A DNA stretch of 64,000 nt from Parcubacteria group bacterium (GTDB lineage Bacteria > Patescibacteriota > Patescibacteriia > Magasanikbacterales > GCA-002688135). Of this stretch, positions 16,203 through 62,650 are shown piece by piece (the first letter of the stretch is position 1; each line of letters begins with the position of its first letter). Made by a program: the position numbers and the translations under genes. The notes below the pieces were generated by a model that had not been told where the DNA came from, did no database searches, and saw nothing but the letters and a program-made list of their open reading frames with translations. The stretch spans positions 4,544 through 68,543 of the forward strand of contig NZCD01000031.1 in assembly GCA_002688135.1 (NCBI GenBank), written 5' to 3'.

Positions 16203-17486
16203 TTAAAGTAAATCCTGATAAACTTTATCAACCGCTTCAATCATTTTTGAGGCGGTAAGTTTTTTTGTAACATGCTCATGGGCAGCTTTTGCTAATTCAG
16301 AGGATAATGTTTCATGATGCATTAACTCGAGAATATGTTCCGCTAGTTGTATCGCATTGCCAGGCTCGACCAAAATCGCTGTCTTTCTGTTTTCCAAAAT
16401 TTCAGGAATCGCACCAACAGAAGAAGCTACGATAGGAACACCAGCAGACATGGCTTCGAGCAATACAAATGGAATTCCTTCCTTAAGAGATGGTAAAACA
16501 AACAAATCAAATGCTCGCAGATATTTATATGCATCAGGAACTGCTCCAGCCAAAAAAACGAAATCATTAAGCGCTCGCATTGCAATATCTTCAGTCAGCT
16601 CGCCTCGCAACATGCCATCCCCAATAATCACAGACTGAACATACGCATCATACTTCGTGTCATCAATTTGATCATTGACCATCCCAATAGCTTCAACCAA
16701 ATGAGTTAGTCCCTTGTTCGGGTATAAATTAGCCACCGTTCCAACCCAGAAATTTTTTTTATTTAAAAGCTTCGGCGGCTGCATTCGATGCAATTTTCGA
16801 TATATAAAATGCCGAGCTTCTTCGCGAGATAAAAAATCAGACACAGGAATATCAACTCCATTATTGATAATATAAATCTTTTTCTTAGGCATGATGCCGT
16901 GCTCATACGCTAAATCCTTATCAACTCTCGAAAGCACAATAATCGCATCCTTCATTTTGCTCGTGAATCTTTCTGCCCAAATATAAAACCACCGCTTCAG
17001 CCACGAAATTTTCTCAGTAAACACCCACCCATGTGCAGTGTATACGACTTTTGGGCGATAACCACCCTTTTTTTTGTAACGTCTGCCAATTTTTGCAGCA
17101 GCCATTGAACCTAACACGCTCATTTTTGAAGCATGTAGATGAATGATGTCTGGGCGAAGACGCTCAATCAATTTCACAATCTCGTGATAACCAACAGGAT
17201 CATAAAGTGGTGAAATTGAGCGAACAACATGCTTAAGTTCAACTGTCTCAATCCCAGCATTTGCAGCACGAACCAACAACTCTTTTGAAATAGAAATCTG
17301 ACCACTCGCAATAATAGTACGATAGCGATCAGATAATCCAGTCGCGACATCAAAAACATATTTCTGTGCACCACCAAATTCCGCTTGCGTGATGATGTGC
17401 AATACAATTGGCTTATTCTCCTTAGAAGACATATGTGTATAGTTTGTGGTGAGTAGTGCGTAGTGAGTAGTAAATGTATCCAACAA
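16203..17486 (-). CDS. Glycosyltransferase family 4 (GT-B, retaining)
   Basis: C-terminal EX7E-type motif EGIPFVLLEAMSAGVPIVASSVGAIPEIL. The N-terminal GT4 acceptor domain spans the first ~180 aa. Confidence 0.8.
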   Translation of the reverse strand: MLDTFTTHYALLTTNYTHMSSKENKPIVLHIITQAEFGGAQKYVFDVATGLSDRYRTIIASGQISISKELLVRAANAGIETVELKHVVRSISPLYDPVGYHEIVKLIERLRPDIIHLHASKMSVLGSMAAAKIGRRYKKKGGYRPKVVYTAHGWVFTEKISWLKRWFYIWAERFTSKMKDAIIVLSRVDKDLAYEHGIMPKKKIYIINNGVDIPVSDFLSREEARHFIYRKLHRMQPPKLLNKKNFWVGTVANLYPNKGLTHLVEAIGMVNDQIDDTKYDAYVQSVIIGDGMLRGELTEDIAMRALNDFVFLAGAVPDAYKYLRAFDLFVLPSLKEGIPFVLLEAMSAGVPIVASSVGAIPEILENRKTAILVEPGNAIQLAEHILELMHHETLSSELAKAAHEHVTKKLTASKMIEAVDKVYQDLL

Positions 17487-17550
17487 AGTTCGATGTATTA
17501 ATAGGTCGCCTTCGGCGACACATTACTACTCACTACAAACTACAAACTAC
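17438..17550. repeat. Family-A hairpin element (GTAGTGAGTAGTAA / TTACTACTCACTAC arms) with nested UUCG-loop hairpin GTCGCC-ttcg-GGCGAC
   Basis: Imperfect ~30-bp inverted arms flank a ~45-nt loop, in the gap between two minus-strand genes. Confidence 0.6.
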
Positions 17551-17557
17551 CCACTAA

Positions 17558-18544
17558 CTAAGCTAACTCTTTATCCTTGACCTCTTCTGTAACACCAGCA
17601 AACTCTCGTTGCCATGCAATAGCCTTTTTGATTCCTTCTGGAAGTGTGGTAGTAGGTTCAAACCCAAGTAACTCTCGTGCTTCAGAAATATCAGCAATAT
17701 AATATGTAATTTCTCCAGGGCGAGTGGGTTCAATAATAGGATTGATTGTTTTTCCTAAATTCTCCGCAATGAAATTCGCCATTTGAACCAAAGTATAACC
17801 AGATCCACATGCCAGGTTCATGGTTTTATTAACAACACGTTTTGAAGTGAGTGCATCAATACCCTTCACAAGCCCCTGAACTGTGTCATCAACAAACGTG
17901 AAATCAAGTGTTTTTTCAGCACCGAAAATAGTAATCTGTTCGTCCTTCCCGATCTTATTGATGAATAACGGAATCACTCGCTCCATGCGTTCAATATCAT
18001 TATCATATCTTCCATAAACATTTGAAAAGCGAAATACTATGTAAGGAATGTCATAACATTGAGCATATGAATAAATCAGAGATTCACCAGAAACTTTACT
18101 TGCCGAATACGTACTTTCTGTAAAAACGAAATCTGCAGCAGGTTCTTTAATTTCCGTACGAGATGTATCGAACCGATTGATATCTCCGTAAACCTCACGA
18201 GAGCTTCCAAAAATAATTGGTACATTATTCGCACGGCAATACTCCAACACATTGAAAGTAAGAATAATATTATCCAAAGCTCGTTGAGGATCTTCAACCA
18301 ACTCATGTACTTTCGCATTAGCAGCCAAATGAACCACAACATCAGGCTTAGGATAACTTGCTGCTCCAATCCCACCAACAAAGTTATGAAAGCGCTGTGA
18401 CAAATCCTGAAGTAACGTAGGAATACGATCTGTCCATGTGTTCATGCGTTTATCAACACCAAAAACACGATCTCCACGATCGAGTAATTTTAGACCTAAA
18501 TTTGTACCAATTTCACCGCTAGAACCTGTAATAAGGACATTCAT
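17558..18544 (-). CDS. NAD-dependent sugar-nucleotide epimerase/dehydratase (extended SDR; UDP-glucose 4-epimerase-like)
   Basis: MNVLITGSSGEIGTNLG (Rossmann GxxGxxG) and YSASK (YxxxK). The track ORF extends 30 codons further upstream (to 18634) through repeat element A2, so the ATG at 18544 was chosen. Confidence 0.8.
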   Translation of the reverse strand: MNVLITGSSGEIGTNLGLKLLDRGDRVFGVDKRMNTWTDRIPTLLQDLSQRFHNFVGGIGAASYPKPDVVVHLAANAKVHELVEDPQRALDNIILTFNVLEYCRANNVPIIFGSSREVYGDINRFDTSRTEIKEPAADFVFTESTYSASKVSGESLIYSYAQCYDIPYIVFRFSNVYGRYDNDIERMERVIPLFINKIGKDEQITIFGAEKTLDFTFVDDTVQGLVKGIDALTSKRVVNKTMNLACGSGYTLVQMANFIAENLGKTINPIIEPTRPGEITYYIADISEARELLGFEPTTTLPEGIKKAIAWQREFAGVTEEVKDKELA

Positions 18545-18548
18545 ATAA

Positions 18549-18667
18549 TATGAGTAAAGCGTAATGAGTAACGCGTAATGAGGGGATTGTATCGGCGCAG
18601 CCGATGTACTAATATGTCGCTTCTGGCGACTCATTGCCCGAGTTACGCATTACGAGTTACGTATTAC
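18549..18667. repeat. Family-A hairpin element (CGTAATGAGTAACGCGTAATGAG / CTCATT..CGCATTACGAGTTACG arms) with two nested small hairpins
   Basis: Inverted GTAATGAG-type arms. Inner hairpins ATCGGC-gca-GCCGAT and GTCGC-ttctg-GCGAC. Lies in the divergent region between the 17558 (-) and 18708 (+) genes. Confidence 0.6.
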
Positions 18668-18707
18668 GAACAATAGTTGACTTTTAACTAACTTTACACC
18701 ATAATAC

Positions 18708-31552: not shown

Positions 31553-31617
31553 AATCGAGAAGCAGGAATTAAGAATTAAGAATACGCTTCGCTTGGCTGT
31601 TACACAGCTTGTAGAAT

Positions 31618-31686: not shown

Positions 31687-31704
31687 GTCTAGGGGCTGCG
31701 ATGG

Positions 31705-34172: not shown

Positions 34173-34269
34173 AAAAGCTAGGTGTAAGGTTTTAGGTGTA
34201 AGGTGTAAGCAAAAAAATCGCGAAGCGATCCTTAAACCTCAAACCTAAAACCTTACACCTAAATCCAAT

Positions 34270-45381: not shown

Positions 45382-45389
45382 ATAAAAAT

Positions 45390-50154: not shown

Positions 50155-51512
50155 ATCCGACCTTACTACAAATAATCCGAGGAATCGGAGCAATAGCAGT
50201 TTCAAATGTGGTGGGACGATTAAGCTCATTTACAACAGTCGTTCTACTGACGACTGCGTTGTCATTATACGAATATGGTTTGGTGATGTTGGCTCTTGCA
50301 ATAACCGGGCCAGTTTTGGCAATCATGTCTCTCGGGTTGGATGATATGATTCTAGCCGACACATCACGCTATCTCGCAGACGGAAAAAGATCACACGCAA
50401 AAAGAATGCTCGTGGGGTATCTATCAGTAAAAGCAGTTCTGCTTGTCGCGCTAATTATAAGTGGTTATTTCTTCCGTGATTTTCTCGCGACAAAATACGG
50501 AACACTCATTACAGACGCTTCACTCATCCTATTACTCTATGTAGTTCTTCAGTATTTTAGAACCTCATACAACACAATTCTACACATCCACAAAAGATTC
50601 AAAACCCTTGCATTCTGGAATTCAATCGAGCCAATCGCCCGACTTATATTCGTGGCTGTAGCATTTGCAGTAGGAGGAATTAATGTGATGGTTGCGCTAG
50701 CGTCATATGTCGCATCTTCTGCGGTGACTATTGTAGGAGCAACACCACAACTTCTTGCAATAGCAAAGACATATCTCAAAGTTCCAAAACTACAACAACC
50801 ACTTTTTAGAATCGCCATGAAAGCTCATGGAAAATGGCAATCCGCACTTTCAATGCTAGGAAGTTTCACAGGTGCAGCCGGAGTATATATCATCAAATAT
50901 TTACTCTCTACAGAAGCAGTTGCTATTTTCTCGGTCGCACAAAGCATGTTCTCTGCGATCGCATCACTCACTCCAATTAAAACTGTCATGGTGCCATTCA
51001 TATCACAATGGTCTACAAATAAAGAACGTCTCAATCAGGTGCTGAAAAAAATTACCAAATATTCCATGTTGATGTACGGGGTAATTATGATAGCTGCAAT
51101 TACTATAGGTCCAGAATTGATACATGTATTCTTTCCAAAATACACAGCCTCTATTCTTGTCTTTCAGATACTTTCTATTCGGTTGTTACTCAACACATTT
51201 TCAATTACGCAATCACCGACGCTCACTGCACTACGTGATCAAAAGTTCATGTCCGGTTTGAGCATATTCAAATTGATTATGCTAGTACTCCTAGCACCTC
51301 CACTGATTATGAAATTCGGAGTGATTGGGGCAGTTCTCGAAATTATCATCACAACTGCAATAATAGAACTTATTCGAGAATGGAGACTACGAACCCGCTA
51401 TGGAATCAAAACAACAACAATTCAGTCATTTTTCACTTTCGATCATATCGATAGGATGATTCTAAACCGAATGAAACAGTTCGGTCATATCATCAAGCAG
51501 AAACTTAAATGA
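50151..51512 (+). CDS. Polysaccharide/oligosaccharide flippase-like membrane protein (MOP superfamily, Wzx-like)
   Basis: 453 aa with ~12-14 TM helices. N-terminus LLQIIRGIGAIAVSNVVGRLSSFTTVVLLT is typical of the Wzx/PST family. Overlaps the upstream stop. Confidence 0.5.
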   Translation: MNPTLLQIIRGIGAIAVSNVVGRLSSFTTVVLLTTALSLYEYGLVMLALAITGPVLAIMSLGLDDMILADTSRYLADGKRSHAKRMLVGYLSVKAVLLVALIISGYFFRDFLATKYGTLITDASLILLLYVVLQYFRTSYNTILHIHKRFKTLAFWNSIEPIARLIFVAVAFAVGGINVMVALASYVASSAVTIVGATPQLLAIAKTYLKVPKLQQPLFRIAMKAHGKWQSALSMLGSFTGAAGVYIIKYLLSTEAVAIFSVAQSMFSAIASLTPIKTVMVPFISQWSTNKERLNQVLKKITKYSMLMYGVIMIAAITIGPELIHVFFPKYTASILVFQILSIRLLLNTFSITQSPTLTALRDQKFMSGLSIFKLIMLVLLAPPLIMKFGVIGAVLEIIITTAIIELIREWRLRTRYGIKTTTIQSFFTFDHIDRMILNRMKQFGHIIKQKLK

Positions 51513-51720
51513 GACCGGTACGATACTCCTGTGCGGGTGTAATGTAGATATTTTTTTCTCAGTTGTGTGAAAAACGACGAGGAAATATGGATCTATTGCC
51601 GAGGAGTTTTGAGCACATCTGAGGAAAAAAGAGCACATCACGCGTGTGCACGGAGTATTGTGCCGGTCTATCAAAAAACCCTTGCGAAAATAGGAGATAT
51701 GCGGTAAGATTCCGTCCACT

Positions 51721-53163
51721 ATGAAGACTATATTCATGACCATTTCTAGGGGTGGAACCGCACGAAATCTCTTGCAAAGTGAGGTATTTAGTGCGCTCAA
51801 AGAGTCTGGAAACAAACTGGTTATTATTGCACCTGCATCAGAGGATGGGACTTTTCAGAAACTCTGTGATGCTCCAAATATACATCTTGAAAAAATGGTT
51901 GAGCTGCCGTGGCGATGGGCAGATCGAGTTTTGGTAGGGATTCACAAGGGACTAATTTACAATAAGAGCACGATGTTCCGTGATAAGTTCGGAATTTACG
52001 ATCCTAAAGAGGGGAGCATGTTCAAGTACTGGATGCGAAAAATTTTTATTGCGCCATTTTCAAAATCAAAATCTCTCAAAAGATTTGCTAGAAAATTAGA
52101 TAAAGTAATAGCACCCGCACGACACTACGAAGAAATTTTTTCAAAACACAAACCAGACGTTCTTTTTTCGACAAGCATGATTGAAGATCAAGAAGTTGAA
52201 ATCATGAAACAAGCGGAAGCTCATGGTGTGCCAATAATCGCAATGCCAAAAACATGGGACAATCCATCAAAAATAAATCTTCGAGTAAAACCGAATAAGA
52301 TAATTGTGTGGGGAGAATATTCAAGAGATGAGGTGGTAAAATATTCGGCAATAGACGAAAAAGATATTGAGGTGTGCGGAATTCCACAATTCGACACATA
52401 TCGAAATATCGATCTGATTGATACACGCGAAGAATTTTGCACAAAATGGGGATTTGATCCAAACAAAAAAATTATTGTATTTGGATCTGAAGGCCGCATC
52501 ACACCACAAGATAAAGACATCGCCAGTCAGATTGCCGCTTGGGTAAAAAATGGTGGGATTGAAAATTCGCAATTGTTCATACGGCCTCACTTCATGTATC
52601 CGGAAGATCCCAAAAAATTCAAAAACATCGAAGCACAAGAAAATGTAAAAGTTGATAATTCTTGGAATCGAATTGATGGGTTTCGTGACAATTGGGATTA
52701 TTCAATGAAACAAATTTCACATTTCGCAAATCTGATGGTTCATGCGGATCTAATGATAACAACAGGCTCAACACTTTCAATAGACGCAGCTGCAACTGAC
52801 ACGCCAGTCATCAATATATATTTTGACACGCCAGATCCAAAACCATTTAACGAATCTGTGAGACGCTGGTACACATCAGAACATTACTCTCATGTGCTTG
52901 AAACTGGAGCTGTAAGTTTGGCACATTCAATGGAAGAGCTGAAAGAATACACAAAACGATATCTCAAAACACCATCTATCAGACAACAGCAAAGAAAAAA
53001 CTTGATTGAAAAATTTGGATACAAAAACGACGGAAAATCCGCAGAAAGAATCGCAGCTTCTGTTCTTGCGTTTATTGGCGAAGAACCTAAATCTCACACA
53101 CACCATGATTCTGTATTAATAACTAAGAGTGAAAAACAAGAACAGAAAGTAATGAGTAATTAG
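51721..53163 (+). CDS. GT-B-like transferase with RPH motif; TagB/TagF (CDP-glycerol glycerophosphotransferase)-like. Alternative reading: CMP-sugar (sialyl/Kdo)-transferase-like
   Basis: Motif order FGSEGRI ... IRPHFMYPED ... LMITTGSTLSIDAAATDTPVINIYFD mirrors the TagF-family order YAPTWR ... K/RPHP ... ISDYSS..D..LL.KPII. Paralog of the 56029 gene. The last codons lie in element A3. Confidence 0.4.
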   Translation: MKTIFMTISRGGTARNLLQSEVFSALKESGNKLVIIAPASEDGTFQKLCDAPNIHLEKMVELPWRWADRVLVGIHKGLIYNKSTMFRDKFGIYDPKEGSMFKYWMRKIFIAPFSKSKSLKRFARKLDKVIAPARHYEEIFSKHKPDVLFSTSMIEDQEVEIMKQAEAHGVPIIAMPKTWDNPSKINLRVKPNKIIVWGEYSRDEVVKYSAIDEKDIEVCGIPQFDTYRNIDLIDTREEFCTKWGFDPNKKIIVFGSEGRITPQDKDIASQIAAWVKNGGIENSQLFIRPHFMYPEDPKKFKNIEAQENVKVDNSWNRIDGFRDNWDYSMKQISHFANLMVHADLMITTGSTLSIDAAATDTPVINIYFDTPDPKPFNESVRRWYTSEHYSHVLETGAVSLAHSMEELKEYTKRYLKTPSIRQQQRKNLIEKFGYKNDGKSAERIAASVLAFIGEEPKSHTHHDSVLITKSEKQEQKVMSN

Positions 53164-53238
53164 TAATGAGTAAAGCGGTCGGCGAAGCCGACAAAAAGCC
53201 ACAGGCTTTACCTCATTACTAATTACTCATTACGCGCT
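53148..53238. repeat. Family-A hairpin element (AGTAATGAGTAATTAGTAATGAGTAAAGC / GCTTTACCTCATTACTAATTACTCATTAC) with nested GTCGGC-gaa-GCCGAC hairpin
   Basis: ~28-bp near-perfect arms. The inner 57 nt are near-identical (3 mismatches) to the copy at 62575. Overlaps the stop codon of the 51721 gene. Confidence 0.75.
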
Positions 53239-53250
53239 ACTAAATTTTCT

Positions 53251-54639
53251 ATGAAAATTTCACAACTCCGAAAAATCTGCCAAACAAGCTCAAGCTCACC
53301 ATCGGCAGCATCACAAACCATCTGGGGCCAAACCAACAGATTCTTTTCGATATACCTAACTCGACTTTTCATCAACACTAAAGTCACTCCTAACCAAATC
53401 ACTATTTTGGGGTCTGCGGTTTTCATCGCGGGTTGTACACTTTTTGTGTTCGGTACAATGAAGTTCAATCTTATCGGATTTGCAATGGTTGTACTGGCTT
53501 ACATTCTGGATGCATCAGATGGAGAACTTGCTCGCTACAGACGTCATCAAGGTCAAACTTCAAAGTACGATCTCGGAGGAGTATATGTAGAGCCAACATC
53601 ACACGACACACAATACGGATTCATGCTGGTTCCCATGGGATATGGAGCGATGATTGCTACAGGCTCTGCCTTACCATTAGTAGCCGCAGCATTTGCAACA
53701 ATTGGAAAACTCATGTTTCGATTACTGGAATTTCGATACATGGCTGCAGCGCGTCATATCGATGAAATTCAAGGCGCAACATATGGCTGGAAGCAAAACG
53801 TACAAACGCCAACCACACTCACGTATCGACTCTATAGAAATTTCTCAACGGTGTGTGGAATGATGCCACTATTGCTAATTGCTATTCTCGTTGACAGAAT
53901 CGATATATTTTTATATGCTTATGCAGTTCTCTTTATAGTATTATGGGCGGTGAAATTTGATCGAAATGTAGAAAAGATACAAAAAAAGATGCAAAAAAAT
54001 GAGACGACAAATCTGCCCAAAATCATCCTATTTGATTTTGACGGAACACTTGTAGATACTATGCATGGATACGCAGATCTAGCTGCGCAAATAATGCATG
54101 AGGCTCATGGAGCCCCGACAGATGAGGCACGTGATGCATATATGCATACATCAGGATTACCATTTTGTCAGCAACTGGAAGTAATCTATCCTCAAGATGA
54201 AAAGAATACTGGAGCAGCTGAAAGATTTGAAAATGAAAAACTCGAGATTATGTGGGCAGCTAATCCTGATGAGGATTGTGATGAGGTATTGACGAAGCTC
54301 AAAGAAAAAGGAATCACTGCAATCATCTCAAGCAACAACACTCAAGAAAATATTACAGCATATTCGCAAAAACATGCACTGAAAGTAGATGATGCGCTCG
54401 GTTACAAAGAAGGATTTGCAAAAGGCCGAGATCACGTCGAACACATAAAAGAAAAGTATAATGTATCTGAATCAGACTTATGGTTTATCGGAGATTCTTT
54501 CGCAGACGGAAAAAAAGCCCACGCACTAAACATCAACTTCATCGCTCGAACAGGAACAAATTCAGCAGACGCATTCTTAGAAAAATTTCCAAATATACAA
54601 ACTATCGATTCTCTAAGCGAGCTACTCAAACTTTTATGA
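53251..54639 (+). CDS. Fusion protein: N-terminal CDP-alcohol phosphatidyltransferase-family membrane domain + C-terminal HAD-superfamily phosphatase
   Basis: N-terminal half: ~6 TM helices with DASDGELARYRR, which fits the D-G-x2-A-R CDP-OH phosphotransferase motif. C-terminal half: ILFDFDGTLVDT (HAD motif I, DxDGT), ISSNNTQ (motif II) and GDSFADGKK (motifs III/IV). Confidence 0.65.
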   Translation: MKISQLRKICQTSSSSPSAASQTIWGQTNRFFSIYLTRLFINTKVTPNQITILGSAVFIAGCTLFVFGTMKFNLIGFAMVVLAYILDASDGELARYRRHQGQTSKYDLGGVYVEPTSHDTQYGFMLVPMGYGAMIATGSALPLVAAAFATIGKLMFRLLEFRYMAAARHIDEIQGATYGWKQNVQTPTTLTYRLYRNFSTVCGMMPLLLIAILVDRIDIFLYAYAVLFIVLWAVKFDRNVEKIQKKMQKNETTNLPKIILFDFDGTLVDTMHGYADLAAQIMHEAHGAPTDEARDAYMHTSGLPFCQQLEVIYPQDEKNTGAAERFENEKLEIMWAANPDEDCDEVLTKLKEKGITAIISSNNTQENITAYSQKHALKVDDALGYKEGFAKGRDHVEHIKEKYNVSESDLWFIGDSFADGKKAHALNINFIARTGTNSADAFLEKFPNIQTIDSLSELLKLL

Positions 54640-55874
54640 ATCACGAGAATAAAAAACGAAAAATCTGTGTCACCCTAATCAACCGCGCAAATTACGGTCG
54701 ATTAAAATCAGTGATGACAGCCATAAAAAATCATCCAGACTTGGAACTCCAGGTTATTTGTGGTTCAGCAATGTTGATTTACAATTATGGAAATGCGATA
54801 GATGTGGTTGAGCGTGACGGCTTTAAAGTTGACGAGAAAATCTTCATGCACGTTGCCGGTGAGACACCCATGACGATGGCAAAGTCAGTTGGAATGGGAA
54901 TGATAGAATTCCCTGCAGCATATGACAGATTAAAACCAGATATTGTAATGGTGAATGCAGATCGATATGAAACATTGGCTATTGCAGCATCAGCATCATA
55001 TATGAACATTCCAGTAGCACATCAGTTGGGTGGAGAATGCACAGGAACTATCGATGACTATGTCAGGCATGCAGTAACAAAACTTTCAGATATTCATTTT
55101 GCAGCTCACACAAAAGCAGCAGAACGCGTCGTTATGATGGGAGAGGATCCATCACGAGTATACGTCACAGGAAATCCGTCACTAGATGTTATTCATGAAT
55201 CACAATCAAATGTCACGAATCAACAATTCTGGGAGAAGTATGGAGGAAAAGGTGGTGGTGTAAATATTGATGAACCATTCTTACTCTCAATTTTCCATCC
55301 CGTTACAACTGATTACGGAAAAAACCGCACAAATGCAGAAGCACTCTTAAGCGCAGTTGATGAGTTAGAAATTCCAACAATCATGCTCTGGCCAAACAAT
55401 GACGCAGGGTCAGATGAAATTGCAAAAGCAATGCGTGTGAGATTCGATCAGGGAAACATGGAAAACCTTCACTTCATCAGAAACCTAGCTATTGAAGATT
55501 ACCTAACTCTCATGGCACGCTCATCTGCTGTGATCGGAAACTCATCATCAGGAATTATGGAAGCAGGATTTTTAGGAGTTCCATGTGTAAACATCGGAAA
55601 CAGACAAGAGGGGCGCGAGCAAACTCACAATGTAATCAATGTAGAACCAAATAAAGAAAAGATAATCGAGGCAATCAAACAATCAATTGAAAAGAAATCA
55701 TATCCAAAAGACCCGCTATTTGGTGATGGAAAATCAGGAAAACGAATCGCAGACATTCTCGCAACAATCCCACTAATGCGACCAAAGATTTATTTTGAAG
55801 CTTCAGATGAGACGAAGAAGAGTTACGTAGATCTTGTTGAACGTGAAGTGAAGCAACGAATGACAACGGAGTAA
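54636..55874 (+). CDS. UDP-N-acetylglucosamine 2-epimerase, hydrolysing type (NeuC/LegG-like)
   Basis: KICVTLINRANYGRLKSVMTAI; QLGGECTGTIDDYVRHAVTKLSDIHF matches the NeuC G-G-E-x-T-x-G...D...RHAITKLS.LHF block. The start ATG overlaps the upstream TGA (ATGA), so the track start 54480 was trimmed. Confidence 0.7.
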   Translation: MNHENKKRKICVTLINRANYGRLKSVMTAIKNHPDLELQVICGSAMLIYNYGNAIDVVERDGFKVDEKIFMHVAGETPMTMAKSVGMGMIEFPAAYDRLKPDIVMVNADRYETLAIAASASYMNIPVAHQLGGECTGTIDDYVRHAVTKLSDIHFAAHTKAAERVVMMGEDPSRVYVTGNPSLDVIHESQSNVTNQQFWEKYGGKGGGVNIDEPFLLSIFHPVTTDYGKNRTNAEALLSAVDELEIPTIMLWPNNDAGSDEIAKAMRVRFDQGNMENLHFIRNLAIEDYLTLMARSSAVIGNSSSGIMEAGFLGVPCVNIGNRQEGREQTHNVINVEPNKEKIIEAIKQSIEKKSYPKDPLFGDGKSGKRIADILATIPLMRPKIYFEASDETKKSYVDLVEREVKQRMTTE

Positions 55875-55989
55875 ATAGAAGAGCTGCTTTTGAGAACGCA
55901 GTGCTCAAAAGCGTTACTATAAAACGAAAAAGGTTTGGTGGGAATAATATAGAATGGCTGCGATGGTATAGGAGGATCAATACTAATAC

Positions 55990-56017
55990 GGGATCCCTCC
56001 TATTGTCGGGATGACGT
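55990..56017. repeat. Family-C half element (GGGATCCCTCCTATTGTCGGGATGACG)
   Basis: GGATCC plus the GGGATGAC core, preceded by an ATAGGAGG...CCTCCTAT short inverted repeat. The track ORF start at 56011 lies inside it. Confidence 0.5.
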
Positions 56018-56028
56018 GGAACGAAGTT

Positions 56029-57402
56029 ATGAAAAAAATCTTCATGATGTTATCGCGCGGATTCGTCGCGCGCAACATGCTTCAAACTGAAGTAAAAAAA
56101 ACAATACTCGAGCAAGAGGATGTACAACTCATCCTCTTTGTTCCATCTAACATTCCTGATCACTTTCACAAAGAGGCAAATCATCCGCGCATCACAACAA
56201 TAGAATGTGAGGATGTGCAGTATGGTCCATTGCGTCGTAGATTCGCGCGATCAATGCAAAAGATGGTGTATTCAAAAACTGCGCAATATCTATTGCATTA
56301 TGGTGGCCGTCCATCAAAGAAGAATATGTCGTGGCCGTTTTTTATTGTTGCACATGGATTCTTCAAATTACTCTCATCAATGAAATTCTTTATTCCAGTC
56401 TGGAGATGGCTGGAGATCGCGACATGGCCAGACAAAATATATGATGAGCATTTCAAAGAACATAAACCAGATTTGGTAATTGCGACAAGTCTTAAAACAA
56501 AACGAGATGCAGCTATTTTGAAATCTGCAAAACGATTCAATGTGAAACCGATTGGTATCACACGAAGCTGGGATAATTTGGATCGAATGTTATTGCAAGT
56601 TGTGCCAGACAAGTTGGTAGTACAAAATGAGGCAATGAAAGAAATTGCAATAAAAGATCATGCGATAGATGAGAAAACTATTTTTGTTGCAGGATTCCCG
56701 CAGTTTGATTTGTATGATAATTCAGAAACATTCGACGACTACGAAACATTTCTAGAAAAAAGAAATTTCACGCCAGATCGAAAAGTCATATTCTTTGGTT
56801 CTGAAGGAGCATGGGCGCCGTATGGATACATGATTGCACAGGAGCTGATCGATATGGCAAACAAGGATGAATTTGTGCATCCAGTTCAGGTGATTGTGAG
56901 ACCGCACTTTTCAGATATTAACTTTGACAAAAAAAATGTATATGACGTAGTTGAGGGTAGACCGCTCACATATTACGACAATTACTTCCGTGTCTCAAAA
57001 ATGTTTACCGACAAATGGGACCCTTCATGGGAGGAAATGACAAACCTCGCAAACCAACTCAAGCATTCAGATATGCTCATCACATACGCCTCGACATTGT
57101 CACTAGAAGCAGCTATACTCGATACACCAATAATCAATATCGATTATCAGGCAAGACAAGAACCAAAAGGTGGACCATTCATGGGAACATTCTACCAATC
57201 CAGTCACTATTCTAGAATGGCAAACTCTGGAGCAATCAAATTTGCGCATTCACGAAATGAATTGAAAGCGCTCGTAAATCGATATCTTGAAAATCCAGAA
57301 TACGAAAAAACAGAACGAAAAAAATTCGCAAACTGGCTTGCGCCTTACACAGGAGAGGCTGGAAAGAGACTTGGCGACTTTATTATTCAACAGCTGTCGT
57401 AA
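56029..57402 (+). CDS. GT-B-like transferase with RPH motif, paralog of the 51721 protein (TagF-like)
   Basis: FFGSEGAW ... VIVRPHFSD ... MLITYASTLSLEAAILDTPIINIDYQ. The N-terminus MKKIFMMLSRGFVARNMLQTEV parallels MKTIFMTISRGGTARNLLQSEV of the paralog. Confidence 0.4.
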   Translation: MKKIFMMLSRGFVARNMLQTEVKKTILEQEDVQLILFVPSNIPDHFHKEANHPRITTIECEDVQYGPLRRRFARSMQKMVYSKTAQYLLHYGGRPSKKNMSWPFFIVAHGFFKLLSSMKFFIPVWRWLEIATWPDKIYDEHFKEHKPDLVIATSLKTKRDAAILKSAKRFNVKPIGITRSWDNLDRMLLQVVPDKLVVQNEAMKEIAIKDHAIDEKTIFVAGFPQFDLYDNSETFDDYETFLEKRNFTPDRKVIFFGSEGAWAPYGYMIAQELIDMANKDEFVHPVQVIVRPHFSDINFDKKNVYDVVEGRPLTYYDNYFRVSKMFTDKWDPSWEEMTNLANQLKHSDMLITYASTLSLEAAILDTPIINIDYQARQEPKGGPFMGTFYQSSHYSRMANSGAIKFAHSRNELKALVNRYLENPEYEKTERKKFANWLAPYTGEAGKRLGDFIIQQLS

Positions 57403-57470
57403 TGAGTAATGAGTAATGCGGGCTATCGCCTTGCGCGATCGCTTTACGCTTTACTCATTACGCATTACGA
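57397..57470. repeat. Family-A hairpin element (CGTAATGAGTAATGAGTAATGCG / CGCTTTACTCATTACGCATTACG)
   Basis: Inverted GTAATGAG arms overlapping the stop codon of the 56029 gene. Inner GC-rich palindrome GCGATCGC. Confidence 0.65.
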
Positions 57471-57476
57471 ATCTAT

Positions 57477-58601
57477 ATGAAACTAGCAATTGTCTTGGGA
57501 ACAAGACCAGAAATAATCAAAATGGCACCAATTGTAAACGCATGCAAAAAAATGAATGTGGATTTTTTCATTTTGCATACTGGGCAGCATTACTCTGAAA
57601 ACATGGATTCAGTATTTTTCAAGGATTTGGAGCTGCCACAGCCGGATTACAATTTAGGAGTGGGGAATCAACCACATCGCAAACAAGTTGGGTTGATGAC
57701 ACGTCACATGCTCGAGGTATTCAAACAAGAAAAGCCAGATGTGGTGATTGTTCAAGGTGATACAATTTCAGTATTGTCTGGAACGCTCGCTGCAAAACGT
57801 CTGGGAATAAAAGTTGCACATCATGAAGCGGGACTACGAAGTCACGATCCATCGATGATTGAAGAAACTAATCGAGTAACCACAGATCATTTATCAGACT
57901 TTCTATTTGCACCAACAAAAGAAGCAACAAAAAATTTAGTAGAAGAAGGATACACAAGTGATCGAATTTTTGAAACAGGAAACACGATTGTTGATGCAGT
58001 TTTATACGCTAAAGATTTAGCAGAAAAAAAATCGAAGATTCTAGAGAAATTAGACCTTGTTAAAGGTAAATACGTTCTGATCACAGCTCATAGAAGTGAA
58101 AACGTAGATAAACGAACAAACCTCAAGGACATGATTCGCGGGATCGAATCAACAGCTGCATCATATCCAGAATTAACCTTCGTATATTCAATGCATCCTC
58201 GCACAAAGAAAATGATCGACCGTTTTGGACTTAATATGCCGCAGCACATGAAAATCATCGAACCAGTTTCATTTCTAGATTTTCTACAACTTGAAACACA
58301 CGCACGACTCATCATGACAGACTCAGGAGGCTTACAAGAAGAAGCCTGTATTTTAAAAGTTCCGTGTGTAACGATGCGCCTAAACACAGAACGTCCAGAA
58401 ACAGTTCGATTAGGAATAAATACATTAGCTGGAACACACCCCGATATGATCCGAGCAAAAGTAAAAGAAATGATGTCAAAAGATAATATCGAATGGAAAA
58501 ATCCATTTGGAGACGGAAAAGCAGCAGAACATATTTTGGAGATATTAGAAAAAGAAATGCAAACTCAACCTGAAAAGGTTGCAGAGTTGACAAATCAATA
58601 A
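57477..58601 (+). CDS. wecB: UDP-N-acetylglucosamine 2-epimerase (non-hydrolysing)
   Basis: MKLAIVLGTRPEIIKMAPIV; HHEAGLRS; MTDSGGLQEEA; 374 aa. These are canonical WecB/MnaA motifs. Confidence 0.9.
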   Translation: MKLAIVLGTRPEIIKMAPIVNACKKMNVDFFILHTGQHYSENMDSVFFKDLELPQPDYNLGVGNQPHRKQVGLMTRHMLEVFKQEKPDVVIVQGDTISVLSGTLAAKRLGIKVAHHEAGLRSHDPSMIEETNRVTTDHLSDFLFAPTKEATKNLVEEGYTSDRIFETGNTIVDAVLYAKDLAEKKSKILEKLDLVKGKYVLITAHRSENVDKRTNLKDMIRGIESTAASYPELTFVYSMHPRTKKMIDRFGLNMPQHMKIIEPVSFLDFLQLETHARLIMTDSGGLQEEACILKVPCVTMRLNTERPETVRLGINTLAGTHPDMIRAKVKEMMSKDNIEWKNPFGDGKAAEHILEILEKEMQTQPEKVAELTNQ

Positions 58602-58637
58602 TATTAACTACACTGTGCGAAGCACACAGGAGAAAAT

Positions 58638-59615
58638 ATGCAAAACGATTACTACAAAGGAAAAAGGGTTTTAGTCACTGGCGCAGACGGCTTCATGGGG
58701 TCACATCTCGTGGACGCATTATTAGCGCAGGGAGCTGAAGTTTCTGTGTTTGTGCGCGGAAATTCTGTAACAGGCACCAACATTAATCAGTTAAAAAATC
58801 TGTCACACGCAGAAGGTAAGCTCAATAAGGTGATAGGTGGTGATGTAGGAAATCCCGATACGATTTCGCTCATTAAAAACAGCGCACCAGAAATCGTTTT
58901 TCATTTAGCAGCTGACGCATACGTTCCAAAGTCTTTCGAGCAGCCTCTTGAGGTTTGGCAGACAAATGCTACGGGGACGTTGCATGTGCTTGAAGGAGCT
59001 CGTGCATGTGGTGCACAACGCATAGTCTGCACATCAAGTTCAGAGGTATATGGGCATTGTGCTGGGTCAATTGATGAGCTTACGGAAATGCGGCCAACAT
59101 CAATCTATGGAGCCTCAAAATGTGCCGCAGATAGAGTAGCGTTCGCACATCACACACAGTTCGGTACACCAGTTGCAATTGTGAGACCGTTCAATACGTA
59201 TGGCCCCCGACATACATATGATGTAATCCCGTACTTCATTAAACTAGCGTTTGATGGAAAAGATCTGACAGTTCATGGAGATGGAACACAAACTCGCGAC
59301 TTTACCTATGTTGATGACACGGTCCGGGGATTCCTTATCATGGGAGAACATCCAGATGCAGTTGGAAGAGCTGTGAATTTTGGAACTGGTACTGACACAA
59401 CAGTAAATGAAATCGCAGTGGCAATTCAAAAACATACCGGAACAGGAATCGGAATTATCCACGGAGAAGCTCGTATGGCAGAAGTTCAAAAAATGCGCAG
59501 CAACCCAGGACTTGCAAAAGAACTGTTTGGATGGGAGGCACAAGTAAGTATTGATGAAGGAATTCGTCGAAACGTAGAACACGTGAGAGCAGCACAGAGG
59601 GTTGTTGCCGTATAA
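58638..59615 (+). CDS. NAD(P)-dependent sugar-nucleotide 4,6-dehydratase/epimerase (extended SDR; Gmd/RfbB-like)
   Basis: VLVTGADGFMGSHLV; TSSSEVYG; YGASK (YxxxK). The N-terminal layout is loosely GDP-mannose-4,6-dehydratase-like. Because fcl is present in the locus a Gmd would be expected, but the specificity is unproven. Confidence 0.7.
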   Translation: MQNDYYKGKRVLVTGADGFMGSHLVDALLAQGAEVSVFVRGNSVTGTNINQLKNLSHAEGKLNKVIGGDVGNPDTISLIKNSAPEIVFHLAADAYVPKSFEQPLEVWQTNATGTLHVLEGARACGAQRIVCTSSSEVYGHCAGSIDELTEMRPTSIYGASKCAADRVAFAHHTQFGTPVAIVRPFNTYGPRHTYDVIPYFIKLAFDGKDLTVHGDGTQTRDFTYVDDTVRGFLIMGEHPDAVGRAVNFGTGTDTTVNEIAVAIQKHTGTGIGIIHGEARMAEVQKMRSNPGLAKELFGWEAQVSIDEGIRRNVEHVRAAQRVVAV

Positions 59616-59780
59616 TCTTTGTGATAAAACTTTCAAGTTTCGGGGTATAATCGATGAACACTTGATGAGATATAAGCCGTAGCTTAGTCGAAGAAAGTTG
59701 AGTCGATTATAACCGAAAATTGAATTTTTTAGCCGAAGACTTATATGGAAAGAGCCCTCATAAAAGGAAAAGGTAGTCGT

Positions 59781-60389
59781 ATGATTAAGGAGAGAGTAAA
59801 GCTTCATCCTACTGCTGAAATCGGCGAAGGTGTCGAGATTGGTGATGGTACTAAAATTTGGGCGCAAGCACAGCTCGGCGCAGGCGCTCGACTGGGTGCT
59901 AATTGCGTAGTTGGAAAAGGAGCATACATTGATCGCGGAGTAAGAGTTGGAAATAATGTTATGATTCACAATTATGCATTATTGTACCGGCCGCTTACGG
60001 TGGAAGACAATGTGTTCATCGGACCACAAGTTGCAAATGCAAACGACCCAACCCCTATCGCAAACGTAATTCGCGACACTGCTAAGGATCCGGGTACGAC
60101 TTTCAAAAAAGGATGTCGTATCGGCATGGGCGCAACACTTGCACCAAATCTGACCATTGGCGAATACGCACAAGTAGACATGCGAGCACTCGTAACTCGA
60201 GATGTTCCGCCTCATGCTATTGTGAGAGGTGTGCCTGCAAAGATTGTCGGCTTCGCATGCTTTTGTGGAAAGAAGTTGGGGAAACATCCTGAAATTCAAA
60301 TGGGCGCAAGCATCCATCATAGATGTGCTGACAGCAGCTGTGCTAAAACAGTAACAATCCCACTTGAAAACTACAAAAGAATGAAATAA
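59781..60389 (+). CDS. Hexapeptide-repeat (LbH) acetyl/acyltransferase (PglD/NeuD/WbbJ-like)
   Basis: Hexapeptide repeats IGDGTKIWAQAQLGAGARLGANCVVGKGAYIDRGVRVGNNVMI. The track start (59745) was trimmed to MIKERVKL. Confidence 0.65.
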   Translation: MIKERVKLHPTAEIGEGVEIGDGTKIWAQAQLGAGARLGANCVVGKGAYIDRGVRVGNNVMIHNYALLYRPLTVEDNVFIGPQVANANDPTPIANVIRDTAKDPGTTFKKGCRIGMGATLAPNLTIGEYAQVDMRALVTRDVPPHAIVRGVPAKIVGFACFCGKKLGKHPEIQMGASIHHRCADSSCAKTVTIPLENYKRMK

Positions 60390-60444
60390 AATACGAGCAA
60401 CTCAATAGAGTTGCTTTTTACTACTCACTACAAACTAAACAGAT

Positions 60445-61602
60445 ATGACCTTAGAAGGAGTCACTACGAAAGTAGCAGATAGAACAAAGAGTGTTTCTTT
60501 GGTGAAAGATTGGATTCTACATTCCGGAATCCAAAACCAAAGCGAAAATAAAAAATTACACGGTGCATTTAATGCGTGGCATGACATCACAAACAACACC
60601 TATCCATACATGTATTCAGAAATCACAGGATATGGATTATCAACTCTCGCGCACATCGCAGCAGAATTTGGTGATAATGAATTGATCAGACAAAAAATTA
60701 CAGATGCGCATGTGTGGCTGCGGGATGTTGCATTGCATGAAAGTGGAGGAGTGAGAACACGAGATTACTATCCCGGAAGCTCTGCATACAACGAACACTT
60801 CGATTTCAAAAATGAAACACTCTATACATTCGATACCGGAATGGTATTGAATGGATTGATGTCAGCATACAATCTAACAAAAGACGAAACACTTTTAGAG
60901 ACGGCAAAAAAGAATGCAGACTTTCTGCTAAAAGCACAAAAAGAAGATGGATCAATCTACGCATATTGGGAAGCTCATAAAGATGAATGGGTAGACAGAC
61001 CAGAAAAATGGTCGTCACAAAGCGGGGCTTATCATGCAAAATGTGCTATCGGATTATATGCATTGGGGAAAGTTGCAGAAAACAAAAGCTGCATAGAAGC
61101 AGCGCTGAAGCTGTGTGAATACGCACTTACACTCCAACATGAAGACGGACGATTCGTTTCATTCCGCGAAACAACAAACACAGAGCTTCATCCACACACA
61201 TACACAATTGAGGGATTGATGTATGTTGCGCAGCAAGAAAATAATCAAAAATACAAAGAGGCTTGTAATCGAGCAATAGAATGGAGTTTCACCTTGCAGC
61301 GATCCAAAGGTGGAGTATCAAGGAGTGTGCACAATAACACTCCAAACGATAATGAAAGGGTAGACGTACTCGCACAAACACTGCGGATGGGAGCTGTCTT
61401 AAATCAATCAGAAGAAAAGCTTCAAAAACTAGAAAAGCAATTATCCTCATACCAAACAGAGGGCTTCATATACGGTTTTGATAATGATGGAAACAAGTTA
61501 TCTCACACAAATGCATGGGTTTCAATGTTCGCCATTCAGGCATTTTCATGCAGAAAAACGCAGGAAAAAGGCGAAAAAATCGATCTGATCAATCTCATCT
61601 AA
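60445..61602 (+). CDS. Hypothetical protein, probably (alpha/alpha)6-toroid fold (N-acylglucosamine 2-epimerase / six-hairpin glycosidase superfamily-like)
   Basis: 385 aa of helix-rich repeats of ~50 aa with aromatic/Gly turns (SEITGYGLSTL, DTGMVLNGLMSAY, TIEGLMYVAQ). No NeuB or TIM-barrel motifs. Low confidence. Confidence 0.3.
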   Translation: MTLEGVTTKVADRTKSVSLVKDWILHSGIQNQSENKKLHGAFNAWHDITNNTYPYMYSEITGYGLSTLAHIAAEFGDNELIRQKITDAHVWLRDVALHESGGVRTRDYYPGSSAYNEHFDFKNETLYTFDTGMVLNGLMSAYNLTKDETLLETAKKNADFLLKAQKEDGSIYAYWEAHKDEWVDRPEKWSSQSGAYHAKCAIGLYALGKVAENKSCIEAALKLCEYALTLQHEDGRFVSFRETTNTELHPHTYTIEGLMYVAQQENNQKYKEACNRAIEWSFTLQRSKGGVSRSVHNNTPNDNERVDVLAQTLRMGAVLNQSEEKLQKLEKQLSSYQTEGFIYGFDNDGNKLSHTNAWVSMFAIQAFSCRKTQEKGEKIDLINLI

Positions 61603-61627
61603 CGAGAGGTATCGCAACCTTCTTAAG

Positions 61628-61726
61628 TGTCATCCCAAGCGCTTATTCTAAAAAATATTTTTCTCTGGAGCCTGCCCTCGCGGATGCGGGGGAGGGATCC
61701 CTCGACTAAAACGCTCGGGATGACAG
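61628..61726. repeat. Family-C element variant (GTGTCATCCCAAGCG ... GAGGGATCCCTCGACTAAAACGCTCGGGATGACAG)
   Basis: Termini TGTCATCCC / GGGATGACA with an internal GGATCC. The right half is the reverse complement of the C2 terminal unit. Confidence 0.6.
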
Positions 61727-61835
61727 TTTCCGAATGCATTCAGGTATCCTCACAGCAACCTTGACAAAAGGCCGCAAAAAAAGTAGCATAACCGAAATAC
61801 TTGATACTTTATTCTTAATACTTGATACGTATTTC

Positions 61836-62579
61836 ATGTACAAAAATAAGCGATTTTTCGCGGTGATTCCAGCCAGAGGAGGATCAAAAGGAATACCTCG
61901 AAAAAACATCAAAGAGTGTGCTGGAAAGCCACTCATACAATGGACGATCGAAGCAGCAAAAAAATCTGCACTGCTCGATCGTTTTGTTGTTTCTACAGAT
62001 GATGAGGAGATTGGGAGAATTGCAACTGCGTGTGGCGCGGATATGCCGTTTGTACGACCAGAAGAATTATCTACAGATTCAGCCCGCGGAATCGATGTAG
62101 CAGCTCATGCGCTGCAATGGGCAAATGAAGAAAGTGGACCATATGATTATTGTCTCATCCTACAACCCACTTCGCCGCTTCGAAGCGTTGAAGACATTGA
62201 TGAATGCATACGCAAAGCAGTAGATACGAATGCGGATTCAGTGATGAGCATGTATGAAATTTCTGACATGTCGCCACGAAAGTTCAAGAGAATTGTGAAC
62301 GATAAAATTCTACCCATGGCAGCGGATGAAGGCGCAACAACTGCAGATCGACACGACAGCGAACCAATTTACAAACGAAATTGCGCGGTGTATCTCACGA
62401 AAGCAGAAGTAATGCTGCGCGGTGAATTGTTTGGCGATGACTCTCGTCCATACATCATGCCAGCAGACCGCTCAATCGACATTAACGAAACGTTGGATTT
62501 CAAGTTTGCCGAATTTCTGTTAAGCGAGCGGAGATCTAAGAAAGGTGCTGATCAACAGCAAGTAAAGAGTAAAGCGTAA
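61836..62579 (+). CDS. Acylneuraminate cytidylyltransferase family (CTP_transf_3; NeuA/PseF/KdsB-like) nucleotidyltransferase
   Basis: FFAVIPARGGSKGIPRKNIKECAGKPLIQW is the hallmark N-terminal motif of CMP-NeuAc/CMP-Kdo synthetase-type enzymes. The track start (61734) was trimmed to MYKNKRFFAVIP. Confidence 0.8.
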   Translation: MYKNKRFFAVIPARGGSKGIPRKNIKECAGKPLIQWTIEAAKKSALLDRFVVSTDDEEIGRIATACGADMPFVRPEELSTDSARGIDVAAHALQWANEESGPYDYCLILQPTSPLRSVEDIDECIRKAVDTNADSVMSMYEISDMSPRKFKRIVNDKILPMAADEGATTADRHDSEPIYKRNCAVYLTKAEVMLRGELFGDDSRPYIMPADRSIDINETLDFKFAEFLLSERRSKKGADQQQVKSKA

Positions 62580-62650
62580 TGAGTAAAGCGGTCGGCGAAG
62601 CCGACAAAAAGCCGTAGGCTTTCCCTCATTACGCTTTACTCATTACGCGT
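62561..62650. repeat. Family-A hairpin element, near-identical core to the 53148 copy
   Basis: GTAATGAGTAAAGCGGTCGGCGAAGCCGACAAAAAGCCGTAGGCTTTCCCTCATTAC. Overlaps the stop codon of the 61836 gene. Confidence 0.75.

Follow-up and report, generated by a model that had tools for sequence, protein, structure and literature searches.

Palindromic units with tandem heptamer arms, copied whole into different gene junctions of closely related Patescibacteria genomes

The 64,000-nt stretch analysed here (the window; positions 4,544 to 68,543 of contig NZCD01000031.1, assembly GCA_002688135.1, from a Parcubacteria group bacterium) contains palindromic inserts of 75-125 bp, termed Family A, at five loci and, in a variant with different arm units, at a sixth. 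Each consists of two inverted arms made of tandem heptamers that enclose a small GC-rich core. These composite units have been copied whole into different gene junctions of closely related genomes of the Candidate Phyla Radiation (CPR, or Patescibacteria), the number of heptamer units changes between orthologous copies, and in three of the window copies the 5' arm now supplies the stop codon of the upstream gene. We consider them probably to be small non-autonomous palindromic DNA elements, akin to miniature inverted-repeat transposable elements (MITEs) and to REPINs, the inverted dimers of repetitive extragenic palindromes (REPs), with tandem heptamers serving as terminal inverted repeats.

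Neither heptamer repeats nor small palindromic mobile elements are new, but the two have hitherto been described separately. We found no description of either kind of element in CPR/Patescibacteria in the literature, and an exact-string literature search for GTAATGA arrays gave no match. The genomes of this group are small, tightly packed and usually thought to be poor in selfish DNA. About half of the longer spacers in the 64-kb island are such hairpin inserts (a hairpin element of some kind occurs in 12 of the 21 spacers of at least 40 nt), and the Family A elements have turned stop/start overlaps into hairpin spacers of 75-125 nt and rewritten the ends of genes.

The source lineage is a marine Patescibacteria metagenome-assembled genome (MAG), and proteins identical to those of the window occur on a 72.5-kb Tara Oceans scaffold, where NCBI annotates them as proteins of a Parcubacteria group bacterium MAG. 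Its GC content is 41%, and a simple gene model assigns 95.7% of the window to coding sequence. It is a glycan-biosynthesis island that encodes glycosyltransferases, O-antigen-ligase-like/tetratricopeptide repeat (TPR) proteins, sugar epimerases and AsnB, together with an MBOAT protein, a CMP-sugar cytidylyltransferase and CDP-glycerol transferase-like proteins. The non-coding ~4% holds all five copies, four of them flanked by genes that run in the same direction and the fifth placed in a divergent spacer, in agreement with an earlier note on this DNA that had placed them all at gene 3' ends or in a divergent spacer; copies 3, 4 and 5 fall within one plus-strand run of co-directional biosynthesis genes.

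Architecture and fold of the Family A elements

The five copies with inverted heptamer arms described in the earlier note were all recovered. An inverted-repeat search gave arms of 22-34 nt with a complementarity of 79-100% and 26-49 nt between them; copy 2 was missing from the inverted-repeat list, and its arms were defined by Tandem Repeats Finder (TRF) and by the fold. TRF resolved both arms of all five copies into tandem arrays with a period of 7 (or 14), built from units such as GTAATGA, GTAAAGC, GTAACGC and GTAGTGA and their complements. The 5' arm comprises 3-5 units of the form GTAA-NNN or GTAG-NNN, which hold TAA and sometimes TGA or TAG, and the 3' arm is made of the complementary heptamers, which are free of stops (CTCATTA repeats, for example, contain none). 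The ends of the elements read GTAATGAG ... CTCATTAC, and the window has 14 occurrences of GTAATGAG where 2.0 would be expected; none of 100 shuffles reached 14.

Because a period of 7 is not a multiple of 3, a stop triplet of the repeated units falls in all three frames within ~21 nt. In the GTAATGA unit TAA, ATG and TGA overlap, and three units suffice to place a TAATGA double stop in every frame; the complement of such a run is stop-free, so that translation entering either strand of the hairpin would be expected to end within ~21 nt.

Small GC hairpins, which the earlier note had reported from the loops, were found in every core, one or two to each, with stems of 5-6 bp and loops of 3-5 nt: GTCGGC-gaa-GCCGAC, AAAGCC-aca/gta-GGCTTT, GTCGCC-ttc-GGCGAC, ATCGGC-gca-GCCGAT and ATCGC-cttgc-GCGAT, several of them with a GAA loop in the sense of the gene. 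These mini-hairpins fold as RNA and with DNA parameters too. As plus-strand RNA, the whole elements reach folding energies of -39.6 to -49.1 kcal/mol (z -5.0 to -10.1), and none of 200 shuffles was as stable, which answers in the affirmative whether the arms form stable structures in silico; the minus-strand RNA folds about equally well. The observation is genuine, and such elements lie far outside what chance would produce.

Family A denotes an architecture within which subfamilies can be told apart. Copies 1 and 2 have one core (A1), with the common sequence AATGwGTCGCC..GCGAC.TATTArTACATCG..GATACA. Copy 1 (17438-17556, minus strand) lies between the TAG stop of an epimerase gene (17558-17560) and the ATG of a glycosyltransferase gene (17432-17430); its gene-sense arm of GTAGTTT/GTAGTGA-type heptamers spans 17523-17556, the complement 17440-17473, and the core mini-hairpin, GTCGCC-GAA-GGCGAC in the sense of the gene, 17505-17519. 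Copy 2 (18549-18672, minus strand), in the divergent spacer, ends 4-7 nt upstream of the epimerase ATG (18544-18542) and has mini-hairpins at 18616-18630 and 18591-18605 in a core homologous to that of copy 1.

Another core (A2) is found in copies 3 and 5, both on the plus strand. Copy 3 (53148-53236) has its 5' arm at 53148-53173 and its 3' arm at 53212-53233, with mini-hairpins A (53178-53192) and B (53196-53208) between them and the downstream ATG at 53251; in copy 5 (62561-62654) mini-hairpins A and B occupy 62591-62605 and 62609-62621, and the downstream ATG is at 62661. We reproduced the 57-nt similarity previously noted between these two copies (53163-53219 versus 62576-62632, with 3 mismatches) and found that it spans the arms and the right flank as far as the ATG, so that the copied unit is the whole hairpin. 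Copy 4 (57397-57470, plus strand; downstream ATG at 57477) has a single-hairpin core, ATCGC-cttgc-GCGAT, at 57425-57439. The sixth element (34179-34266, plus strand) combines arms of AGGTGTA-type heptamers with the core ATCGC-GAA-GCGAT (34217-34229), and fills the interval between a gene end at 34172 and a gene start at 34270. Across seven independent sites, and on both strands of the window, the asymmetric two-hairpin cores hold a single orientation relative to the adjacent gene (sign test ~0.016). As a side observation, the core of copy 4 includes, at 57435-57442, the cyanobacterial HIP1 octamer GCGATCGC; HIP1 is not enriched in the window (2 sites versus 0.74 expected), and the occurrence is probably a coincidence.

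The overlap of three copies with the stops of upstream genes, which the earlier note had reported, was confirmed, and each of these stops lies within a 5' arm on the plus strand. The 480-aa Glyphos_transf gene (..VMSN*) ends at TAG 53161-53163 inside the 5' arm of copy 3, the 463-aa gene upstream of copy 4 (..QQLS*) ends at TAA 57400-57402, which is the TAA of the first GTAATGA unit, and the cytidylyltransferase gene (..VKSKA*) ends at TAA 62577-62579 inside the 5' arm of copy 5. In the element-bearing clade the cytidylyltransferase carries a tail of 12-15 residues whose end is encoded by heptamers (..VKSKA*, ..VKRNA*, ..VISNE*), and this tail is absent from more distant homologues. For annotation, the elements thus account for short lineage-specific C-terminal tails (..VMSN, ..VKSKA, ..VISNE), and they can break assemblies and mislead gene callers.

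Filled and empty junctions in syntenic relatives

Syntenic contigs of relatives were reached via homologues of two flanking genes. The PyrG protein encoded on a syntenic relative contig had named matches in Patescibacteria only (Parcubacteria group, 96%; Magasanikbacteria, 72-73%; then Uhrbacteria and Falkowbacteria). A cyanobacterial source, which tandem heptamers of the STRR kind might suggest, was rejected on these matches, on the Parcubacteria annotation of the identical proteins and on the lack of HIP1 enrichment. At junction 3 (Glyphos_transf/HAD), where copy 3 forms an 87-nt spacer in the window, the relative L244 reads TAA-AT-ATG and L250 has an ATGA overlap. Junction 4, filled by copy 4 in the window, is an ATGA overlap in both L244 and L250, the window reading ..CAG CTG TCG TAA TGA GTA.. 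where L244 reads ..CAA TTA TGA.. At junction 5, between the cytidylyltransferase and the next gene, L244 and L247 are filled like the window (copy 5), and L250 again has an ATGA overlap. The L244 element at this junction has the same core (GGTCGGCGAAGCCGAC-AAAA-GCCGAAGGCTTT) with five left and two right heptamers, versus four and four in the window, and the L247 element has a different loop; an element thus persists here across relatives whose cytidylyltransferases are 74-79% identical.

On the minus strand, junction 2, just upstream of the epimerase ATG, is occupied by copy 2 in the window and is also filled in L253, whose epimerase is 89% identical, and empty in L251 and L254. At junction 1 a Family A element (copy 1) is present in the window alone: the spacer measures 6 nt in L251 and 56 nt, with no hairpin, in L253, and L254 has an unrelated hairpin of TAG-rich repeats. 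This L254 hairpin (6935-7060) consists of TAG-containing TTTAGCT/AGCTTTTT units and their complement, next to an epimerase 73% identical to that of the window, so that different stop-rich repeat hairpins occupy one junction in different lineages.

The A2 core also occurs at other junctions of the relatives. L244 carries the A2 core at three junctions within 20.7 kb (4596, 10766 and 16670), the sole comparable one of which is unfilled in the window. A further contig, L037, is collinear with window positions 35340-42176, its proteins being 82-94% identical to those encoded there; it has an A2-type element at a junction that reads GAAGTAAT-ATG (TAA-T-ATG) in the window, and a second Family A element where the window holds a hairpin of a different family. 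The L037 sequence (CAZHVT010000005.1; GC 41.6%) is labelled 'uncultured Gammaproteobacteria bacterium', a label that conflicts with the assignment of the window's lineage to Patescibacteria and that we set aside.

Two proposals of the earlier note gain from this comparison. Spread by a copying mechanism is borne out by the empty sites at copies 1, 3 and 4 and in two of three relatives at copy 2, together with the presence of core plus arms at other junctions in relatives. The suggestion that the arms act as stop-codon donors holds for copies 3, 4 and 5, whose upstream genes stop inside an arm, where the genes of element-free relatives, a comparison the note had itself called for, end at an ATGA overlap or at a TAA 2 nt before the ATG. 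The downstream ATG lies 4-17 nt after the 3' arm (27 nt in one relative).

The comparison shows that whole units (arms, core and right flank) have been copied into junctions that in relatives are ATGA overlaps or very short spacers of a few nucleotides; after the insertion the upstream gene ends at a stop of the 5' arm, the downstream ATG is kept, and the number of heptamers subsequently drifts. Stops in all frames combined with a perfect hairpin may make insertion at packed junctions tolerable, the hairpin bringing the old stop and start positions back together, and such tolerance would explain the strict order of the arms. All-frame stops provided by the leading arm on either strand suggest a route by which the elements could colonise overlapping gene junctions. 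The elements are presumably transcribed on the same RNA as their flanking genes and form very stable hairpins there; these may shield 3' ends or serve in their processing, and would not act as canonical terminators. Candidate mobilisers are a REP-associated tyrosine transposase (RAYT)-like or other enzyme that recognises single-strand hairpins, or recombination or conversion between heptamer arrays. An IS608-type TTAC target was also considered and dropped, since that model needs the TTAC repeats 5' of the core and, whichever strand is read, they are found on its 3' side. Integron attC sites, imperfect palindromes that close a cassette on its 3' side and are bounded by RYYYAAC ... GTTRRRY core sites, were likewise rejected: the end motifs of Family A do not fit, and the order of genes is the same in element-free relatives, so that the hairpins are inserted and are not parts of cassettes.

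Alternative readings and known repeat systems

Several observations weigh against mobile elements of a single family. At the five junctions compared, filled and empty sites have diverged in their flanks and no target-site duplication could be identified; among the 28 window ORFs scanned there was no gene for a transposase, RAYT or IS200/IS605 protein. Copies 1/2, 3/5 and 4 have in common their architecture and type of mini-hairpin and show no full-length homology, which makes 'one family' partly a matter of definition; the copies were counted within the 64 kb and ~90 kb of relatives only; and G.U pairs, at 18 of 403 in the sense strand versus 27 of 412 in the antisense strand, show no sense bias and provide no positive evidence of a role at the RNA level. 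The lack of both a duplication and a transposase would also suit an origin in place, unlikely in our judgement, in which slippage grows arrays from TAATG/ATGA-type junctions, fold-back copying makes their partners and gene conversion swaps the cores, all without transposition. Slippage has been proposed as the cause of the abundance of heptamer repeats, in work cited in PMC4692102 and PMC4679880. The varying heptamer number of orthologous copies would follow, one empty site reads AAGTAATATG and is already heptamer-like, and, among the matches listed in the metagenome survey described below, 89 of 104 (GTAATGA)n arrays are lone, many of the lone arrays beginning at or just past the end of an ORF. 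However, the core, both arms and the right flank recur as one block at non-orthologous junctions, in copies 3 and 5 as well as in the three copies of L244, and relatives show clean ATGA overlaps without an array there, so that no pre-existing target for conversion is seen; fold-back alone, moreover, predicts both arm orders, and only the stop-rich-first order was found.

It is possible, though doubtful, that the hairpins are primarily selected RNA modules, namely 3'-exonuclease barriers, RNase III sites, translation regulators or factor-dependent bidirectional terminators, and that mobility is secondary. The constant gene-relative orientation of the asymmetric cores at seven sites is consistent with such a role, as are the retention of the junction-5 element across relatives and the gene pairs that surround GTAATGA hairpins across phyla (22 convergent, 37 tandem and 2 divergent). 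REPs situated within ~15 nt of a stop codon can reportedly stall terminating ribosomes (Liang, Rudd and Deutscher are said to have described this in 2015). REP, Correia and ERIC elements have been reported to affect mRNA stability (PMC3733652, PMC2229807). Against this, G.U pairs give no sign of a preferred sense strand, and the fold of the antisense strand is no less stable (summed energies of -467.8 kcal/mol for sense versus -494.6 kcal/mol for antisense), presence varies among close relatives at five junctions, which implies that no junction needs its element, and copy 2 lies directly upstream of a start codon rather than at a 3' end. The stems are not followed by a U-tract and match no Rfam family, nothing reaching gathering scores and nothing that overlaps Family A appearing at E<=1. 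The missing U-tract bears most directly on canonical intrinsic (Rho-independent) terminators, a reading that the great stability of the stems and the location of most copies at gene 3' ends would suit; the earlier note had thought structured RNA terminators or stabilisers likely. We regard intrinsic terminators as highly improbable: the stems are long and AU-rich, no T-run begins within 2 nt of any stem (copies 3-5 are followed by GCGCTACTAAATTTTCT, ATCTAT and GCGTCACTAATTTT), and a terminator scan called none of the five, with no call at copies 3-5 in the scan of 50000-64000. Copies 3-5 also lie inside one co-directional pathway run whose junctions in element-free relatives are ATGA overlaps or 2-nt gaps, and efficient termination there would be expected to silence the downstream genes. 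Sites that act as DNA, through cruciform topology or the binding of a nucleoid protein, as when gyrase and IHF bind REPs and bacterial interspersed mosaic elements (BIMEs), would agree with the equal folding of both strands, as expected of a DNA palindrome, and with the folding of GC mini-hairpins with 3-nt loops under DNA parameters; d(GCGAAGC) is an unusually stable DNA mini-hairpin. We likewise give this reading very little credence, as it comes with no evidence for a binding protein and explains neither the polarity of the stop-rich 5' arm nor the gene-relative orientation of the core.

The favoured reading, that of MITE/REPIN-like elements, places Family A beside several known systems. 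Cyanobacterial short tandemly repeated repetitive (STRR) sequences were reportedly described by Mazel in 1990, and their classic units are CCCCAGT, TTGGTCA and CAACAGT; the units GTAATGA, GTAAAGC, GTAACGC and GTAGTGA of Family A match none of these. In Nostoc punctiforme, Elhai et al. are said to have reported in 2008 small dispersed repeats (SDR1-8), hairpin mobile repeats of 21-27 nt that often sit inside tandem heptamer arrays. The resemblance of Family A to these is architectural only, a GC mini-hairpin core flanked by heptamers, whereas its host is a CPR bacterium and its arms move with the core; one report describes SDRs as confined to the Nostocaceae (PMC5861425). With STRR and other heptamer simple sequence repeats the elements have in common a tandem 7-nt unit, intergenic location, variable copy number and occasional inverted pairs, of the kind noted for GGGAATC in Xanthomonas in one account (PMC4692102). 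The function of prokaryotic heptamer repeats is regarded as unknown in the accounts cited here (Mrazek 2007, as cited in PMC4692102 and PMC4679880; Mori 2019, PMC6344855), and these reports describe arrays rather than composite hairpins with a conserved core copied between junctions.

Among heptamer repeats the TAACTGA repeats (MacGregor 2015, PMC4679880) come closest, having a 7-nt unit with TAA and TGA, stops in three frames in one orientation, an intergenic location and, in some cases, overlap with the end of the upstream ORF. They occur in marine Beggiatoaceae, Cyanobacteria and Bacteroidetes, scattered across phyla with no known mechanism of transfer (PMC4679880), a scatter that Family A-type hairpins resemble. 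However, TAACTGA repeats are direct repeats just upstream of start codons, with one inverted set reported, and differ in sequence from the Family A units, which form inverted pairs around a GC mini-hairpin, are copied as one unit and are placed such that the stop-rich array abuts the upstream stop and the stop-free complement adjoins the start codon.

Among palindromic elements, REPs and REPINs (PMC3733652, PMC3116915, PMC2817692) offer short GC palindromes with 2-4-nt loops, often arranged as inverted dimers that fold into larger hairpins, mobilised by RAYT transposases and thought to be miniature mobile DNA; most REPs are situated past the 3' ends of ORFs, where the neighbouring genes are unidirectional or convergent (PMC3733652). 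The mini-hairpins of Family A span 13-15 nt as against 20-40 bp for REPs, its long stem is made of heptamers and not of two REPs, and the unpaired GTAG/CGTC tag of REPs (PMC3733652) is absent beside its mini-hairpins, where the adjoining bases are GCG, AAA, TGT and similar; GTAG occurs only within the heptamers of copy 1. The bacterial MITEs, among them Correia/NEMIS, RUP, ERIC and YPAL (Delihas 2008, PMC2229807), are ~100-200 bp long, form long stem-loops in transcripts, are co-transcribed with their neighbours and were inferred to be mobile from filled and empty sites; those that contain stops in every frame are restricted to intergenic DNA (PMC2229807). Family A elements are small, end in inverted arms, number five to six in 64 kb and occupy sites that are filled in some genomes and empty in others, and the same A2 core at three L244 junctions and one in L037 fits the dispersal expected of MITEs. 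It differs in that MITEs have unique-sequence terminal inverted repeats, usually a TA duplication and an identifiable parent insertion sequence, whereas here the arms are tandem repeats and no duplication was seen at the five junctions. In its combination of heptamer arms, a GC core of fixed orientation and movement as a unit, in a CPR genome, Family A differs from all of the systems compared.

GTAATGA hairpins in other phyla and further repeats in the window

We scanned 185,579 species genomes for exact matches to GTAATGAGTAA-N25-55-TTACTCATTAC, for which we estimate a chance expectation of ~1 from its 22 fixed bases, and found at least 120 loci. The matches listed carry the labels Cyanobacteria, Chloroflexota, Bacteroidota, Patescibacteria, Nitrospirota, Acidobacteriota, Elusimicrobiota, Pseudomonadota, Campylobacterota and Bacillota (at least nine phyla, with the proviso that taxonomic labels of MAGs can be wrong, as with L037), and include isolates of Nostoc, Calothrix, Tolypothrix and Chryseobacterium. 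In nearly all matches listed, GTAA-NNN heptamers extend to the left and their complement to the right, around loops that are unrelated. The complement lies downstream of the array at 77 of the genome loci listed and upstream at none, although the seeds are biased to that order.

For an unbiased sample we used the lone 22-mer (GTAATGA)3G as a seed in metagenomes. Among the matches listed, a complementary array was found downstream in 18 of 114 fully flanked arrays by a strict criterion, and upstream in none; three further arrays near contig ends also had the complement downstream. A relaxed periodic criterion gave 15 of 104 downstream and none upstream, again among the matches listed, which corresponds to a sign test of ~6e-5. 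The seed replaced a swapped-arm control in viral contigs, rejected because its one match versus none was too few. Both neighbouring genes were called for 61 of the hairpins among the matches listed, giving the 22 convergent, 37 tandem and 2 divergent pairs mentioned above. ORF stops often coincide with array positions 1, 8 and 15, and an open frame of at least 100 codons ends at the 5' edge of 29 of 86 lone arrays, versus 3 of 86 on the antisense side.

It is tentatively conceivable that GTAA-type stop-rich heptamer hairpins form a cross-phylum class of 'translation-insulated' palindromic modules at gene 3' ends, with the stop-rich arm first on both strands. Such a class could have arisen by convergent selection for a stop in any frame before a stable hairpin, or through one mobilising mechanism common to the phyla; if it is real, it would offer a concrete functional reason for some of the heptamer repeats whose abundance in prokaryotic intergenic DNA has had no explanation. 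The polarity of the arms across phyla is a simple, testable rule that bears on why 7-nt periodicity dominates prokaryotic intergenic repeats (PMC6344855). A general rule that heptamers exist for the sake of all-frame stops was rejected: among 263 non-GTAA heptamer arrays at the same loci, units with stops on one strand only numbered 112 versus 125 expected from letter-shuffled units, and 96 of the 263 had units without a stop on either strand. A period of 7 was found in 605 of 804 tandem arrays of at least three copies at the listed loci, which had been selected for having a heptamer array.

Two further observations concern these surveys. Seven metagenome loci (L125, L137, L139, L160, L207, L215 and L237) have very long GTAATGA arrays, pure or mixed with GTAATCA/GTGATGA, of ~70 to several hundred nucleotides; no inverted partner is seen within the ~110 nt downstream that were shown, and some of the arrays alternate their units in a regular higher-order pattern. 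At Nostoc loci L017, L043, L056, L076, L092, L100, L113 and others, the GTAATGA hairpin sits inside a longer conserved repeat (..ggtgattctggaGTAATGAG..AAATACCCATTTTTCATCCACTCATTAC..tttaaagcattgcgtgaagcacgggg), which is probably a cyanobacterial MITE that carries heptamer arms.

The window also contains hairpins of other kinds. A second family, at 31618-31686, 33381-33449 and 42234-42306, consists of inverted units of 28-31 nt (TGTCATCCCGGCGAAGGCCGGGATCCAT and its complement), each unit being a GC hairpin with a GAAG loop, and the pairs look like REPIN-type dimers; related sequences lie at 28761-28819, a 21-nt tandem repeat with GTCATCCCG, and at 61625-61728. The only Rfam matches at E<=1, to miRNA precursors (31592-31709), fall on a hairpin of this family and are far below gathering thresholds. 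A second design of short tandem repeat arms around a core, with a period of 8 and not 7, is seen in the 8-nt direct repeats of the CTACAAAT type: TACAAATC occurs twice at each of 42202-42218, 45183-45198 and 46380-46396, and ATTTGTAG twice at each of 42330-42346 and 45344-45369. Together with their complement, these repeats enclose the hairpin at 42234-42306 as well as the spacer at 45160-45390; they recur at 46380-46396, just upstream of a further hairpin at 46424-46495. That hairpin has a perfect 33-nt stem (GTCATTGCGAGCGCTTTAGCGTGGCAATCTGAA and its complement) with a 6-nt loop, lies in the spacer 46358-46545 and has no sequence relationship to Family A.

A lone heptamer array (ATACTTG x4.6) is found at 61797-61828, in the 233-nt spacer upstream of the true start of the cytidylyltransferase at 61836; the ORF taken from its first start (61734; 281 aa) runs through this array and is ~34 residues too long at its N terminus compared with homologues. 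Nearly the entire 64 kb is devoted to the synthesis of cell-surface glycans, which seems a large investment for a small CPR-type genome, and it includes paralogous CDP-glycerol-transferase-like genes and four large O-antigen-ligase/polymerase-like proteins, of which two carry TPR repeats at the C terminus (4526-11243, 13550-16192).

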